Shown: positions 833 through 16,021, numbered from the stretch's first letter. The stretch: DNA of 16,021 nucleotides from a virus (IMGVR_UViG_2713896902_000004), one strand, 5' to 3'. The notes: a model not told the origin generated them from the letters alone. A program made the numbers and translations.

Positions 833-985
833 AAAAATACACCTCCTAATATATGACGGTATGAACTTGGTTGTTTAAATTATACTTAATTTTTTGAGGT
901 GTTTACATAGTATATGAATATGAGATATCGCATTCTATAAGTGAATGCGATCTATAGCATGGAATAAATAAAAAGGTGTTATAAT

Positions 986-1012
986 AAAAACTGGGTATGA
1001 AACCCAGTTTTT
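986..1012. terminator. Hairpin terminator downstream of the tail operon (usable in both orientations)
   Basis: Perfect 11-bp inverted repeat AAAAACTGGGT / ACCCAGTTTTT with 5-nt loop ATGAA, flanked by A/T runs; lies about 60 nt 3' of the Tfa stop (minus strand). Confidence 0.5.
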
Positions 1013-1072
1013 ATAAATTATATTATGAAAATAACATGGTTATTATGAGTAATATGGTAGTTTCATATAACT

Positions 1073-5275: not shown

Positions 5276-5336
5276 GTGCTTATTTTCGCCCTGAACGGAC
5301 AGTGGGGATATTAAAGCGATTTAGAAAACTGATTGA

Positions 5337-5368
5337 TTAAAAAGAGAAAACCCGCCATCAGGCGGGTT
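5337..5368 (-). terminator. Intrinsic-terminator-like hairpin between the gpV-like and gpW-like genes
   Basis: On the minus strand, 4 nt after the gpV stop: AACCCGCC-TGAT-GGCGGGTT (8-bp GC-rich stem, 4-nt loop) followed by TTTTCTCTTTTT. Confidence 0.5.
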
Positions 5369-5373
5369 AAAAG

Positions 5374-6033
5374 CTAGTGTGAATGGTGATTTGAGTTACC
5401 ACCGCTATCCTGCAATGTGCCGCTGGCCTGAACGTTACCAATCACATTGACATTGCCAGTTATCGTGGCGGCGTTACCGATGCCTCCACTTCCTGCCATG
5501 CCACCCAGCCAGGTGAGTTTTTTCATTACTGTGACGTTACCAGTAAAGGTGCTCATGGGCGCATCTACCGTCACTGTCGCCGCTTTAATATCGACGGTAT
5601 CGGAAGTCACGGTGACCTGTTGGGCTTTAACCTCAACGTTGGGTGATGTCAGGTTAGTATGGTCAATAACCTCAATCACGATTTTCTCAATACCGCCGTT
5701 AATCGTAAGCTGGTGTGTGCTGCGGTCATATTCAAACGCTGCGCCATCAGAAAACTGGACGTAACGTTTATCTCGCGAGGCCACAGGCGCGGTGTCAACC
5801 GTAGAATAAACGGCCCCAAGTACCACGCCATCTTCGCCGTTGTCGTCCAGCAGAACTTCCACCTGCTCACCCATATCCGGTAGCCAGTAGTCTTTATTGT
5901 CCTGGGAATTACGTTGAAGTACCGCAAGCCAGTTACTCTTCAGATTGTCGCACTCTGGCAGTGTGACTCGCACCCGAACGCTGGTTTCGTCAATATCGCT
6001 GATAATCCCCGTTTGCCGGGTTACTCCCTTCAT
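5374..6033 (-). CDS. Baseplate central spike protein gpV-like (P2 gpV / Mu gp45 family)
   Basis: 219 aa; N-terminal OB-fold-like region (…NGEDGVVLGAVYS…) and a C-terminal Gly/Val/Asn-rich beta-helix-like region (GNVTVMKK…GNVNVIGNVQASGTL) typical of spike proteins; follows the gpD-like hub gene. Confidence 0.8.
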   Translation of the reverse strand: MKGVTRQTGIISDIDETSVRVRVTLPECDNLKSNWLAVLQRNSQDNKDYWLPDMGEQVEVLLDDNGEDGVVLGAVYSTVDTAPVASRDKRYVQFSDGAAFEYDRSTHQLTINGGIEKIVIEVIDHTNLTSPNVEVKAQQVTVTSDTVDIKAATVTVDAPMSTFTGNVTVMKKLTWLGGMAGSGGIGNAATITGNVNVIGNVQASGTLQDSGGNSNHHSH

Positions 6034-6042
6034 AGTGCCTCC

Positions 6043-7083
6043 TTACTGGCTGGTTGCTGGCCCGCGCGAAACGTCGATTTCAGTGGTATAGCCGCTGCGC
6101 ACAAAACTGTGAGTAGATTTATCAATCAGCCATTGTCCAGAAAGAATACCAAAATCAATGAGTTCGATTTTATTGCCTGCTGTCAGTTCCGGGCAGCCCA
6201 TCATCCTGAGTGTTCCGGTTTGCTGATATTCGTTGTGGCTGTCGAGTGCAGCGTTGGCCTTTGCCTGTGCCGCGCCAACATCCGTCGCCCGGCTGTTGAG
6301 TTTCAACGTGTCGGCACTGGTGCCGACTCCACGGGCTGACGGTTTTTGCTGGCTGTCGTGAGTGTAGATAACCAGTTCTTTTTTCTTACTATTTTGATGC
6401 TGTACGGTGGCGTTCTTGTAGATGCGATTAATGGTGTCTTTGAAGGTAAAGTGCGAAACCTCTTTACGGTCGATGGTTTTCACTGGCGCCAGGCAGCGTA
6501 GTGTCGGCAGATGTGAAAAAATCAGCTCTTTTGTCGTCACTTTCACGGCATAGCCATATTCGCTGGCCAGACGCTTGAGAAATCCAACATCGGTTTCGCC
6601 GTACTGTGTCACCCGGTCAATCGCCAGTGGCTCGATTTTGCCCACCAGCTTCAGACCGTGAGTTTGCGCGATACGACTGGCGATGGCCGAAAGCGTCGTT
6701 TCTTCAAAGCCCTGACTGTTACGGGTACGCAGCGCCTGATTGACGGAAGTGGCAATGCCATCAATATTTACCGTGGAAGGTGGTGCTGAAATATCAATTT
6801 TATCAATAACATACTGACCGCAATCGAGGAGCGTCTCCCCCTGATAACCCATATGTAGCGCCAGCGTATCGCCTTTGCCGGGATACCACTCTTTTATCCA
6901 ACGTCCATCGGTGTCATCCAGTGTAATGGCGATGGTATCTGACTCGTTTTTGATGCTGTCGTGGTAACTGATGCTGGTGACATAGGGCGTGATGTCATAA
7001 GTGATATCTTTATGCCCATACCAAAGGGTAAAAATGGGCGCGAGTGTGGCAAAGACGCCACCAGATACGCTTATCTCAGCCAT
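6043..7083 (-). CDS. Baseplate hub protein gpD-like (P2 late control gene D / Mu gp44 / VgrG-N family)
   Basis: 346 aa with the family character (…SDTIAITLDDTDGRW…PGKGDTLALHMGYQGETLLDCGQYVIDKIDISAPP…); conserved position after the gpX-like gene. Confidence 0.8.
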   Translation of the reverse strand: MAEISVSGGVFATLAPIFTLWYGHKDITYDITPYVTSISYHDSIKNESDTIAITLDDTDGRWIKEWYPGKGDTLALHMGYQGETLLDCGQYVIDKIDISAPPSTVNIDGIATSVNQALRTRNSQGFEETTLSAIASRIAQTHGLKLVGKIEPLAIDRVTQYGETDVGFLKRLASEYGYAVKVTTKELIFSHLPTLRCLAPVKTIDRKEVSHFTFKDTINRIYKNATVQHQNSKKKELVIYTHDSQQKPSARGVGTSADTLKLNSRATDVGAAQAKANAALDSHNEYQQTGTLRMMGCPELTAGNKIELIDFGILSGQWLIDKSTHSFVRSGYTTEIDVSRGPATSQ

Positions 7084-10608: not shown

Positions 10609-10708
10609 AATTGTTTCTCTTATAGATTGGTGATGGCCCGCTGGTTAGTTTTCTGAAAAATGGGCTGGGAAGAAATAAACCTGGCGAGCTTTGAAGAACT
10701 CGCAGACA

Positions 10709-13116: not shown

Positions 13117-13297
13117 TTTCCTCTACGTTATTTTGTTCTTCCTGGGGAATGATGAGAATCAAGTGATTTCGGGCAATCATGGTCATAACCCACTCATTGT
13201 CTTCTGGCAGATCAATTTCACTGTTCGGCCATAATAAGATTTCTTGACCGTCGGCAAGGGTGACGCCGCTTGCCGGACCGTTGTAGATATATTTCAT
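13100..13297 (-). CDS. Small conserved phage protein preceding the sheath gene (Mu gp38/DUF2635-like by position)
   Basis: 65 aa; ATGA overlap with the upstream gene and 17-nt overlap with the sheath start; assignment by position and size only. Confidence 0.35.
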   Translation of the reverse strand: MKYIYNGPASGVTLADGQEILLWPNSEIDLPEDNEWVMTMIARNHLILIIPQEEQNNVEEIVHGS

Positions 13298-13749
13298 TCA
13301 GTTTCCTCGTAATTAACTTCAGTAAGCAGGGGAAGATCCGTGCTGTCCTGTTCAGCGATAAACAGCGAGCTGGTCGCCATTTCCAGGATGTAGCGGCAGA
13401 AACCGTCGCTCTCACCCGTATTAATTTCTTTTTCAAGCCAAATAAGATGATCGCAATCAGGAGGCTGAAGGCCTCCCAATGCGCTGCGTATGTGATCAAG
13501 TGCGTTTAACGCATCACAATTTTTGCCAACAATAACGGTGGCGGTTAAGCGGAGTATTTGCTGTTGTACAATGGCATCACTACTTTCGGGCGTGGTGAAG
13601 ACAGAACCGCTATAATTAATAATCACCGTAATCTGTTGTGTCTGTGGAATATATTTTTGGGCATCCGTAGATGAAATGAATATGTCCATTTCAGGATGCC
13701 GATCACGTAATCTGACCACGACATAATTCATTACAGATAAAATTTTCAT
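13294..13749 (-). CDS. Putative tail completion/terminator protein (Mu gp37-like by position)
   Basis: 151 aa, first gene of the tail block after the terminator at 13855-13891; coupled to the next gene by an ATGA overlap; assignment by synteny. Confidence 0.4.
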   Translation of the reverse strand: MKILSVMNYVVVRLRDRHPEMDIFISSTDAQKYIPQTQQITVIINYSGSVFTTPESSDAIVQQQILRLTATVIVGKNCDALNALDHIRSALGGLQPPDCDHLIWLEKEINTGESDGFCRYILEMATSSLFIAEQDSTDLPLLTEVNYEETE

Positions 13750-13854
13750 ATGAGGTGTACCTTAATTACCGCTCACTTCGTTATCGTTGAAATGTATTCT
13801 GAAGCAGTGAGAGTGAAGAATCTTTTAATGTGATTTAGAGAAAAAATTGAATGG

Positions 13855-13891
13855 TTATAAAAAATCCCCACACTTACGTAAAGGTGGGGAT
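13855..13891 (-). terminator. Intrinsic terminator after the lysis cassette
   Basis: On the minus strand, 4 nt after the stop of the 104-aa gene: ATCCCCAC…GTGGGGAT (8-bp stem with a partly self-pairing 12-nt loop) followed by TTTTTTATAA. Confidence 0.55.
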
Positions 13892-13895
13892 GTAT

Positions 13896-14210
13896 TTAAT
13901 AACTGCCACGTTGTAATAACTCTATTTTGCTATATAAGGCATCCAGCTTTGCTTCTAATACTGCTTGTCCACGAAGATAATCCTCTCTGCGGACATAATA
14001 CAGTGGAAGTTCGGCACGAAATTCGAGAAATTCTCTTTCCAGTTTCGACCAGCTTGTTTCTGATTCCCTGCGGGCATTTTCCAGGGACTCAAAACGCTCA
14101 TTAAGTCTTTTTTCAATTTGCGCTAACAGCAATTTTCCGGCAGCAAACATTAATCCAACGAATGAAAGCATAAAGGAGATCACTTCCCAAAAATCGATAC
14201 TGAGTTTCAT
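13896..14210 (-). CDS. Membrane-anchored coiled-coil protein, possible i-spanin (Rz-like) or lysis accessory protein
   Basis: 104 aa; N-terminal hydrophobic helix (ISFMLSFVGLMFAAGKLLLAQI) followed by a charged helical region; immediately after the transglycosylase gene. Confidence 0.4.
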   Translation of the reverse strand: MKLSIDFWEVISFMLSFVGLMFAAGKLLLAQIEKRLNERFESLENARRESETSWSKLEREFLEFRAELPLYYVRREDYLRGQAVLEAKLDALYSKIELLQRGSY

Positions 14211-14222
14211 CGGCCCCTCTGA

Positions 14223-14828
14223 TTAGTGAAGACAGCTTGCCTGTCCCCAGAGTAAGTAGCGGGCGGCGTGTTGATAGAGAATCATCTTCGGATAGTGACG
14301 ATTTTCTCGCCAGTTTGCGGCGCTGCGCCCGGCGTTGACTTGCTCAACATGACCAAACCAGATGGCGGCATTTAACCCTTTTGTTGTCGCCAGTTTTTTA
14401 TCCCGGTTAATCCAACCCTGACCACCGTTATAGGCGCTTAGAGTAAACGCCATACGTTGACAATCATTTTTTGCAGAGATGTTGTTCCATAAATGCTGGT
14501 CGTACTGTACCAACGCCCGGATTGCCCAGGTTGGGTTATACGGTTTGTTTTCATGTAGCTGTGGATACAGTTGGCTTATCCATGTCGCTGTGGCAGGCAT
14601 AAATTGCGCCATACCTTGTGCGCCAACGGGGGAACGTACCATTGGCTGCCAGGCGGACTCCTGGTGTAATTGCCCGGCAAAGTCAGCCACAGGAGCGTTC
14701 AGTCCCCAGACTTCTCGGGCGGTACGAATCAATTCATTTCTCCATGCCAGAGAGGCTTGTGGTGGTTCAGACGCATTAAGCGGGAAAAGAACGAAAATAA
14801 TCATAGGCGCGATATATTTTAGCCACAT
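14223..14828 (-). CDS. Lytic transglycosylase (SLT-domain endolysin candidate) with N-terminal signal peptide
   Basis: SLT catalytic motifs: …QLHQESAWQ… (catalytic Glu-Ser), …GAQGMAQFMPATA…, …AYNGGQGW…. The longest ORF runs to 14927 but the likely start is the ATG at 14826-14828 (MWLKYIAPMIIFVLFPLNA, Sec-type signal peptide), 2 nt after the upstream stop. Confidence 0.85.
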   Translation of the reverse strand: MWLKYIAPMIIFVLFPLNASEPPQASLAWRNELIRTAREVWGLNAPVADFAGQLHQESAWQPMVRSPVGAQGMAQFMPATATWISQLYPQLHENKPYNPTWAIRALVQYDQHLWNNISAKNDCQRMAFTLSAYNGGQGWINRDKKLATTKGLNAAIWFGHVEQVNAGRSAANWRENRHYPKMILYQHAARYLLWGQASCLH

Positions 14829-14830
14829 CA

Positions 14831-15118
14831 CTATAGCCCTAACGCGACGGAAAGGCAGACTGCAGCCACGATGATGGCGCGACGAATCATTGCCGCTGCG
14901 TAGCAACGCGGTTCCTTCCTGGGGCAAAAAAAGTCAGGCCGTGCCCAGGGGAACAAACTACGATCGAGCCAGTATCCCAGCACTGCGGAAAGTGAAACCA
15001 GGCTTAGTTTATAAATGACGACCGGAATTTGTGCTGAAGATGTCCAGCCGATCAATGCAATCAGAGCAATGGCTGCAGCCAGCCAACCGGAAAGACGGGG
15101 AAAAGTGATTTTTTTCAT
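14831..15118 (-). CDS. Holin-like small membrane protein
   Basis: 95 aa with 2-3 predicted transmembrane helices; strong AGGAG 8 nt upstream of the ATG; first gene of the lysis cassette, tightly coupled to the transglycosylase gene. Function by position only. Confidence 0.4.
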   Translation of the reverse strand: MKKITFPRLSGWLAAAIALIALIGWTSSAQIPVVIYKLSLVSLSAVLGYWLDRSLFPWARPDFFCPRKEPRCYAAAMIRRAIIVAAVCLSVALGL

Positions 15119-15434
15119 ACGATATCTCCTGATAAGTGAGATACCAGTGTCTGCTTATCTCTTTGCTGAAGAATGAAAAAAGCTTTAATAAATAACTTTA
15201 AAAAATGTGTTCTCTTCGAATTAACATGTTCGCCAATTAATCTCCCAACTCAAAATAGAGAACTAAGGATAAAATGGCTGCCAGTTAGATAAATCCTGCG
15301 TTATGTGTAATGAAGGGGATGACATATTGCAATCATGGTCGTTACTTATTTGATTTTTAAAGTTTGTTTAAAAAAATCCTCGACTGTGAGGGAAACGAGC
15401 TTTTTGAAAAGTAGGCGATAAAAATGATAAATAG

Positions 15435-15454
15435 CACTGTATATGTATACAGTA
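15435..15454. promoter_or_regulatory. LexA (SOS) box
   Basis: CACTGTATATGTATACAGTA matches the E. coli LexA consensus TACTGTATATATATACAGTA at 18/20 with intact CTGT-N8-ACAG. Overlaps a possible minus-strand promoter (-35 TTTACA, 16-nt spacer, -10 TACAGT) and lies just downstream of a possible plus-strand promoter (-35 TTGAAA 15404-15409). Confidence 0.6.
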
Positions 15455-15673: not shown

Positions 15674-16021
15674 ATGATACAAAAAGCAAAAGAGATGACC
15701 CGGACACCGGAGATCATTAACGATTTGGCGTTTCATGCTTCGCAAGTTCTGATTGAGAGCATCAATCTGGATAGCTCATCTGCGGAAAATGTTGGCTATG
15801 CCATTGCCGATCGCATGATGCGAAACTGGGGCGGACAAAGCATTTATTTTCCAAAAGGAATCGCCAGGCGAGCCTCGGAGCGGGACTATCAAATCTATAG
15901 CGAGTGCGATGGGCGCAACTACGCCGAATTAGCGAAGAAATATAATCTGACGCTGCAATGGATTTATAAGATAGTAAAACGCGTGCATACAGAAAAGCAG
16001 CAACAGCACCGTATGCAGTAG
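15674..16021 (+). CDS. Mor/C-family transcriptional activator (Mu middle-operon-regulator-like)
   Basis: 115 aa; …NWGGQSIYFPKGIARRASERDYQIYSECDGRNYAELAKKYNLTLQWIYKIVKRV… parallels the Mor C-terminal region (GGQ.Y.P.G…RD..I…GRN..EL…Y..T….YK..R) including the HTH; GGAG 7 nt upstream of the ATG; divergent from the lysis/tail block. Confidence 0.65.
   Translation: MIQKAKEMTRTPEIINDLAFHASQVLIESINLDSSSAENVGYAIADRMMRNWGGQSIYFPKGIARRASERDYQIYSECDGRNYAELAKKYNLTLQWIYKIVKRVHTEKQQQHRMQ

Follow-up and report, generated by a model that had tools for sequence, protein, structure and literature searches.

We analyzed a 16,021-nt stretch of viral DNA (IMGVR_UViG_2713896902_000004), referred to below as the window, and in particular the interval at positions 13750-13895, where a lysis cassette gives way to the genes of a contractile tail. 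All long open reading frames (ORFs) called in the window lie on the minus strand except one. Read along that strand, the cassette begins with a gene for a 95-amino-acid (aa) holin (14831-15118; Pfam Holin_2-3, E 6.6e-26; PHROG holin), whose ATG is preceded by the Shine-Dalgarno sequence AGGAG. It continues with a gene for a 201-aa endolysin (14223-14828, minus strand), a lytic transglycosylase with a hydrophobic N-terminus (Pfam SLT, E 3e-14; PHROG endolysin, E 2.8e-61), and is closed by a gene for a 104-aa protein (13896-14210, minus strand; phrog_462, E 2.7e-32). On the far side of the interval, a Gp37-family gene (13294-13749, minus strand, 151 aa; Pfam Gp37, E 2.8e-33) opens the tail operon. 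The sole plus-strand gene (15674-16021), divergent from the lysis and tail genes, encodes a 115-aa Mor/C-family protein (Pfam Mor PF08765, E 1.2e-37; PHROG 'late transcriptional activator') and is the only such activator gene in the element. In predicted gene content the window corresponds to an R-type tailocin: a Mu-like, tail-only cluster for a contractile tail that brings its own lysis genes. Pfam and PHROG annotation placed no head, packaging, replication or integration gene among the window genes.

Predicted terminator and promoter between the lysis and tail genes

The 104-aa gene ends with a TAA codon at 13898-13896. Only 4 nt (ATAC) separate this codon from a stem-loop at 13891-13864, AUCCCCACCUU[UACGU]AAG(U)GUGGGGAU, which has 11 base pairs, one bulged U and a 5-nt loop, and the U-tract UUUUUAU (13863-13857) follows straight after the closing A-U pair. 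We refer to this predicted intrinsic terminator (13857-13891, minus strand) as T1. Folded alone, T1 had a free energy (dG) of -15.5 kcal/mol while shuffled sequences gave -7.1 +/- 2.4 (z -3.5), with 0 of 200 shuffles as stable, and the same hairpin dominated the fold of the whole 156-nt interval. A further 107 nt lie between the end of the U-tract and the Gp37 ATG (13749-13747), and the GC content over 13750-13899 was 0.32-0.35 as compared to 0.43-0.52 inside the flanking genes. An earlier, sequence-only reading of this stretch had described a strong hairpin with a U-tract 4 nt past the last lysis gene and about 105 nt of AT-rich DNA before the first tail gene; our measurements were in agreement with both descriptions. 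T1 shares a GC-rich stem and a directly adjoining U-tract with intrinsic terminators in general, and it also has the position past a stop codon and the structural conservation by which such terminators are recognized. It differs from them in its bulged U and in its loss in some lineages. A generic terminator scan did not list the T1 hairpin because of this bulge. We found no plausible small ORF in the interval: the candidates, of 27 to 32 aa, run across the hairpin and are disrupted by indels in relatives. Rfam returned nothing at gathering scores in the whole window, and a relaxed search of 13650-14000 gave only a chance match (E 0.13).

Genomes were scanned with a sheath alignment, and the window proteins were mapped onto the 79 loci obtained; a scan with a Gp37 alignment confirmed none. 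Seven loci had the tail-only layout of the window, namely those of E. coli, Salmonella, two Superficieibacter, Lelliottia, Phytobacter and Dryocola. A hairpin with a T-tract was present at the place of T1 in E. coli, Salmonella, both Superficieibacter and Phytobacter. The stems differ in sequence yet pair across genera (CCCCAC/GUGGGG, CCCCG/CGGGG and CCCUGC/GCAGGG), and the per-locus folds ranged from -15.5 to -20.6 kcal/mol. In a covariation test, which comprised only 5 distinct sequences, 95% of the cells in the outer helix were paired and 2 out of 8 pairs were changed on both sides, while slid controls were at most 55% paired. The most common E. coli variant has a further double change that makes the bulged stem perfect. 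This conservation of position with compensatory changes in the stem is comparative evidence for the earlier claim that the lysis cassette ends at a terminator, and we infer that the lysis-operon transcripts (holin, SLT endolysin and 104-aa protein) end at T1 (13891-13857).

About 10 nt past T1 begins a 26-bp block, TTTTTTCTCTAAA-NNNN-ATTAAAAGA (13846-13821), which is the most conserved part of the interval, above the hairpin, and an invariant block in two alignments of relatives. This P2 box (13821-13846, minus strand), a predicted Mor-family activator site, is made up of a T-run (13846-13838), TAAA (13837-13834), the spacer TCAC, ATTA (13829-13826) and AAAGA. A predicted -10 hexamer, CAGAAT (13796-13801, minus strand), lies 24 nt past the dyad and 19 nt past the 26-bp box; its counterparts are CATAAT in E. 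coli, CAAAAT in Salmonella, GATAAT in Superficieibacter and AAAAAT in Dryocola. The dyad is centred 30.5 bp upstream of the -10's first base, at -42.5 to -43.5 relative to a transcription start predicted at about 13789. The predicted 5' leader of the tail operon (13750-13788, minus strand) carries a conserved block, AACGATAACGAAG, and the Shine-Dalgarno sequence AAGG (13763-13760). A scan for consensus sigma-70 promoters found no -35/-10 pair in 13750-13895 and no -35 hexamer at P2, as expected for a promoter that would be activator-dependent. Both the box and the -10 were retained in variants that had lost the T1 hairpin.

The geometry of P2 resembles that of phage Mu promoters. Mu Pm and the four Mu late promoters have a -10 hexamer and no -35, need Mor or C at an imperfect dyad centred at -43.5, and carry an A/T-rich site for the RNA polymerase alpha subunit's C-terminal domain (alpha-CTD) at -57 to -52 (PMC2582627, PMC4390567, PMC4287176). 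The Pm element spans 16 bp, with 5-bp arms and a 6-bp spacer (PMC4390567), and Mor and C are reported to bind as tetramers covering ~26 bp (preprint, bioRxiv 10.1101/2025.05.02.651988); the P2 box agrees with these sites in both its position and its length. Working from the sequence and the verbal description in PMC4390567, and not from a printed figure, we read the Pm site as AGTAA-AGCCGG-TTAAT with the -10 TATCCT, also 30.5 bp apart. In the Mu sequence, mor and C each end in a stop codon with a hairpin behind it, and Pm or Plys comes next, so the succession of a gene, a hairpin and an activator-dependent promoter is a known Mu design. After the mor stop codon the hairpin is AAAGCCGG-ttaa-TCCGGCTTT with T8, and it overlaps the Pm region.

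A candidate promoter motif at three operons

Two further sites of the P2 type were found in the window. P1 (15146-15200, minus strand) would be the activator-dependent promoter from which the lysis operon is transcribed; it is conserved in 8 loci, and 27 nt separate it from the holin ATG downstream. It carries the dyad TAAA-GCTT-TTTT (15187-15176) and the -10 GACACT (15151-15146). A second dyad, TAAA-GTTA-TTTA (15200-15189), is located 13 bp upstream of the proximal one and is kept in 7 of the 8 loci, while P2 and P3 have a T-run only at that position. We speculate that this second dyad, the weaker right arm TTTT and the -10 GAYACT might give the lysis operon a differing strength or activation threshold. 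P3 (5282-5323, minus strand), the predicted promoter of the baseplate/fibre operon, reads TAAA-TCGC-TTTA with the -10 GAAAAT (5287-5282), and the ATG of the gp25-like gene (5275) follows 6 nt after that hexamer with no Shine-Dalgarno sequence. The arrangement GAAAAT-N6-ATG was invariant in the 8 loci and recurs in many complete Mu-like prophages; the P3 mRNA is probably leaderless. We also noted that the bases flanking GAAAAT at P3 can pair in several loci, e.g. GAGGGC/GCCCTC in Lelliottia.

P3 lies in a second intergenic gap (5276-5373), the layout of which is that of the T1-P2 gap: a terminator at 5368-5349, then TTTTCTAAATCGCTTTAATATC, 19 nt and GAAAAT. The terminator, T2 (5349-5368, minus strand), is predicted to be intrinsic and follows the gpV-like gene; it reads AACCCGCC-tgat-GGCGGGTT and then UUUCUCUUUUU, with a dG of -15.3 kcal/mol. 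T2 was the top match of the generic terminator scan and is conserved in E. coli and Superficieibacter. A symmetric predicted terminator, T3 (984-1014, minus strand), with a 13-bp stem flanked by A and T runs, closes the element behind the tail-fibre assembly gene.

We abstracted the pattern TAAA-N4-WTT-N25-NANANT from P2 and P3, and P1 emerged as the third match. The pattern had 3 matches in 16 kb on both strands where 0.17 were expected, all three on the gene strand and directly upstream of the holin, Gp37 and gp25-like genes. An alignment of 24 sites (P1-P3 in 8 loci from 7 genera) showed one spacing between the dyad and the -10, the exception being the P2 -10 of one locus (L004) with a 1-nt shift. 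Positions A2 and T6 of the -10 were conserved in nearly all 24 sites, and the exceptions were the shifted P2 of L004 and the P2 of L005, which has a weak GAAGCT. A position weight matrix (PWM) built from other genera only, with the window and E. coli left out, scored P3 at 34.1, P2 at 28.7 and P1 at 27.8 bits, while the next best match in the window reached 12.3 bits and 30 resampled windows had a median of ~10.8 and a maximum of 22.2 bits. The core of the motif is a T-run followed by an imperfect dyad, TAAA-N4-(A/T)TTA; the dyad is a perfect palindrome only at some sites, such as TTAAAGCGCTTTAA in Salmonella P3 and Lelliottia P2. P1-P3 and the Mu promoters Pm, Plys, PI, PP and Pmom are alike in having a -10 with no -35, a dyad at about -43, an A/T stretch upstream and an activator of the Mor/C family (PF08765).

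In the tail-only loci of Chromobacterium and Rivihabitans, mor is divergent and is the gene immediately upstream of Gp37, and no co-directional gene precedes Gp37. The promoter of their tail genes must therefore sit in the gap, and this gap contains CTGTAAAGCGCGTTAAAAGAC or a close variant within otherwise GC-rich DNA. The sequence-only reading had proposed that the tail genes probably have their own promoter, and the conserved box and -10, the Mor/C geometry and the Chromobacterium gap are comparative evidence in favour of such a promoter, one that is probably Mor-dependent.

We also compared complete Mu-like prophages of Buttiauxella, Pantoea, Photorhabdus, Xenorhabdus, Burkholderia, Pseudomonas and others. 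In these prophages no gap precedes Gp37, which overlaps the stop codon of the head gene before it, i.e. the two are translationally coupled. The box is found at three sites, one upstream of the protease/scaffold gene, one upstream of the gene for the tail chaperone and one 7 nt before the gp25-like start. Examples of prophage boxes are L008 6338-6386, L010 ~6395-6440 and L013 ~6400-6443, with many others in gamma- and beta-proteobacteria. The box motif thus appears, from these occurrences, to be a late-promoter signature of a large Mu-like phage family. The box at the protease/scaffold gene, TTTTTTCTAAAGCAGATTAAAAG...CAGACT, is nearly identical to the P2 of Phytobacter and Dryocola, and the prophage leader AACGTAACG and the window leader AACGATAACG begin alike. 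Judged via these complete relatives, P2 stands where Mu has PI, the promoter upstream of protease/scaffold; unlike PI, it directly precedes a tail gene, the head genes being gone. On the simplest reading, P2 would be the late promoter of a phage head operon, and it would have survived the loss of the head genes. No GC hairpin with a U-tract was found upstream of the PI-type box in the complete Photorhabdus, Xenorhabdus and Buttiauxella prophages, and T1 was therefore not part of the ancestral promoter module.

BLASTP aligned the Mor-family protein with Mu Mor at 26% identity (E 1e-14) and with Mu C at 36% identity over 61 aa (E 3e-11). In the intergenic region between mor and the holin gene we identified a near-consensus LexA (SOS) box, TACTGTATACATATACAG (15437-15454), an exact match to the pattern TACTGTATATATATACAGTA (CTGT-N8-ACAG) with 0.01 matches expected by chance. 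It was kept in 7 out of 7 aligned tail-only loci, and it overlaps TTTACA-16-TACAGT on the minus strand, toward the holin gene, and a TAAAAT hexamer on the plus strand, toward mor. The presence of this box suggests that the whole element may be DNA-damage inducible. About 70 nt past the LexA box in the holin direction, we observed another conserved block, TTAAACAAACTTTAAAAATCAA (window 15350-15385), preceded by a short hairpin and T-run, CCTC-acagtc-GAGG-T7 (CTCACG-atcg-CGTGAG-T5 in Salmonella). This block could be a short SOS-induced transcript or an attenuator.

From these comparisons we hold, with good confidence, that 13750-13895 is the boundary of two transcription units, the predicted terminator T1 followed by the Mor-type activator-dependent promoter P2, within a three-operon regulon. 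By analogy with Mu Pm and the late promoters, the Mor-family protein (15674-16021) would bind the P2 box at about -43, recruit sigma-70 RNA polymerase and activate transcription from the predicted start point. The tail transcript would begin at ~13789 with a leader of ~40 nt and run from Gp37 through the sheath, tube and tape measure genes to the gpV-like gene. Unit 1 would extend from P1 (15200-15146) over the holin, endolysin and 104-aa genes to T1, unit 2 from P2 (13846-13796) over Gp37 to the gpV-like gene and T2, and unit 3 from P3 (5323-5282) over the gp25-like to the fibre-assembly gene and T3 (1014-984). The presence of one promoter type at three units, each with a terminator, argues for a three-operon regulon of one activator, in which the Mor-family protein would switch on P1, P2 and P3 together. 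T1 would keep lysis-operon transcripts from adding to tail expression, and this insulation, along with the separate promoters, could allow far more structural protein than holin to be made. Lysis and tail genes are thus probably separate units that are co-regulated. The sequence-only reading had gone further and suggested that lysis timing is controlled separately from tail synthesis. The separate units were supported, while fully independent timing was not, since P1 and P2 carry the same box and therefore probably respond to the same activator; a difference in timing would arise at most from promoter strength or threshold.

A wider proposal, to which we give somewhat less than even credence, is that the element is a domesticated, SOS-inducible tailocin in which LexA would control one Mor/C-family activator and the activator three promoters. 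The activator's operator would consist of a T-run and TTAAA-N4-TTTAA, centred at about -43; the tail promoter would be an exapted promoter of the phage head operon (PI-type), the baseplate mRNA would be leaderless, and T1 would act as an insulator, variable among lineages, that determines how much lysis protein is made relative to structural protein. The arrangement is an ordinary phage operon design that follows the Mu paradigm, and it appears to be undescribed for this element. It gives an uncharacterised, widespread tail cluster of Salmonella, E. coli and related enterobacteria a predicted regulon of 3 promoters, a binding motif, 3 terminators and a LexA box, and it offers a candidate example of a phage late promoter kept through the loss of head genes. 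These assignments should help in the annotation of Mu-like prophages and tailocins and in attempts to engineer how tailocins are expressed.

Alternative readings of the boundary

Several observations weigh against a boundary formed by T1 and P2. Terminator-like sites were not in excess in the window, with 22 found and 16.6 expected in shuffles, and a second scan for hairpins with U-tracts likewise gave no excess in number. Since the number of such sites is not above chance, the case that T1 is more than a chance hairpin rests on its position and conservation. In the second scan only 4 sites passed on the coding strand, and 3 of the 4 (13866, 5350 and 990) each closed a gene block at its 3' end. 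T1 itself is not universal: Dryocola has only an AT-rich structure of -2.5 kcal/mol in its place, Lelliottia has a GC hairpin that lacks the U-tract, and in the E. coli KK19-02 lineage (an identity band of 7 records, one of which was inspected) the hairpin is cleanly deleted. The separation of lysis and tail transcription is therefore not essential to the element. The P2 dyad (TAAA/ATTA) is imperfect and weak, as is that of P1 (TAAA/TTTT). P1-P3 are also unlike Mu sites in their TAAA/TTTA arms, their core of 12-14 bp and their spacer of 4 bp as compared to 6 bp in Mu; the 4-bp spacer points to a variant site for a diverged family member and not to identity with Mu Mor/C sites. In addition, the literature that we searched by STM locus tags (those of the Salmonella orthologue), tailocin, Mor and LexA held no RNA data or transcript mapping for the element.

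The loss of the hairpin in Dryocola and E. coli KK19-02 bears on the possibility that the lysis and tail genes form one long operon, the tail genes being transcribed mainly by read-through from the holin promoter, with the hairpin as a weak attenuator or a stabiliser of a 3' end or processing product and with the box being no promoter at all. Such natural hairpin-less variants indicate that read-through is tolerated, and phage late operons are often read through. The same variants, however, keep the box and the -10, which outlast the hairpin, and a single operon leaves the box unexplained. The box is also present at the start of the holin operon, before Gp37 in loci where no co-directional gene lies upstream, and at the head operon of complete prophages, where Mu has PI. 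We therefore consider one continuous operon unlikely. The hairpin could instead have been a protein site, the inverted repeat at 13891-13864 being itself bound by the Mor-family protein with a promoter immediately downstream, as at Mu Pm. The Mor site of Mu does overlap a terminator-like hairpin and T-run at Pm, and Mor/C sites are dyads. The T1 stem, however, covaries and its sequence is not conserved, which is the signature of an RNA structure and not of a protein site; the repeat is missing from two lineages in which the tail genes are kept; at a distance of 30-32 bp from its centre the sequence is TTTTTT, with no -10-like hexamer; and the repeat of T2 is unrelated in sequence. We regard a binding site within the repeat as highly improbable.

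The identity of the factor that recognizes the box is a separate matter. The box might be a real promoter element or operator that is read by a host nucleoid protein, by a repressor or by RNA polymerase through a UP-like element. It is very AT-rich after a T-run, as UP elements are, and the predicted LexA box points to an action of host regulators on the element. Against this, the box co-occurs with a Mor-family gene in most of the loci examined, i.e. the enterobacterial and Chromobacterium tail-only loci and the Photorhabdus, Burkholderia and Pseudomonas prophages. Its position relative to the -10 equals that of Mor/C sites, its dyad arms resemble the TAAA...TTAA motif in the Mu Pm region, and it stays AT-rich in the GC-rich genomes of Chromobacterium and Burkholderia. 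Recognition by some other factor is improbable in our judgment, and the Mor-family protein is retained as the predicted activator of P1-P3. In Mu itself, we noted TTAAA-CCGGTA-TTTAA in the G-I gap (L085 2417-2432). Its arms match the box with a 6-bp spacer, a -10 could not be placed at the published -43.5, and the site was not used as evidence.

The element, its relatives and its flanks

Past Gp37, the tail operon continues with gp38-like (65 aa), sheath, tube, chaperone, tape measure and gpU-, X-, D- and V-like genes and ends at 5374. After the gpV-like gene come gp25/W-like, J-like, I-like, tail fibre and fibre-assembly (Tfa) genes, also on the minus strand. The sheath, tube and tail assembly chaperone (TAC) families were assigned by Pfam and the other tail genes were identified separately. 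Between the tail chaperone and tape measure genes we observed a minus-strand hairpin, GCGAGTT-cttcaa-AGCTCGC (window 10684-10703), followed by a T-rich stretch. This region normally encodes the frameshifted extension of the chaperone, and the hairpin could be a frameshift-associated structure or a chance match.

The 104-aa protein at the end of the lysis cassette has a membrane helix at its N-terminus followed by a coiled coil, an architecture that is i-spanin- or releasin-like. It matched no Pfam or NCBIfam family and had no BLASTP similarity to Mu gp25. We infer a role in lysis from the position of its gene, the sole basis for this assignment; the gene accompanies the SLT endolysin in related tail-only loci and in prophages. 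No lipoprotein o-spanin partner was found for the protein, and an o-spanin embedded in the gene itself was ruled out, as the overlapping frame of 53 codons has no lipobox.

The R2 pyocin of Pseudomonas aeruginosa is an R-type tailocin cluster under PrtR/PrtN control. By its predicted genes the element resembles R-type pyocins and other tailocins: it is chromosomal and tail-only, carries a lysis cassette of its own and has a positive regulator dedicated to it. It is unlike an R-type pyocin in its gene order, which is Mu-like and not P2-like, and in its activator, which belongs to the Mor/C family and is not PrtN; control would be exerted by LexA directly, with no repressor of the PrtR type. Given the LexA box, a link to DNA damage as in pyocins is likely. 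Compared to Mu, the element has one activator, 26-36% identical to Mor and C, and no cascade from Mor to C. No experimental report on the element (particles or killing) was found in the literature searched. A paper on an ST131 'tailocin' was rejected as such a report because it concerns a different, P2-like prophage.

The same element adjoins lysC in 197 of 5426 complete E. coli genomes, at ~88% identity, and in E. coli the Mor-family gene is the last gene of the element and the one next to lysC. The Salmonella orthologue, STM4198-STM4219 of Typhimurium LT2, has 74% DNA identity and the same gene order. In both species the element is bounded by lysC and host genes, and the orthologues also carry the terminator, the P1, P2 and P3 boxes and the LexA box. 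Salmonella differs from the window in two respects: its P2 leader has an extra hairpin, and gtrABC lies between the position of T2 and P3. These O-antigen glucosylation genes (L002 6900-10220; window ~5330-5370) follow the gpV-like gene and precede the P3 box, at the place of T2 in the window, and the Salmonella locus with this insertion keeps the P3 box and GAAAAT-N6-ATG. At the other end of the window, AT-rich non-phage DNA forms the left flank (1-1072). Similarity of this flank to E. coli was confined to 96-414, a 76% match to a gene with a nucleotidyltransferase domain, which lies beside the E. coli element as well.

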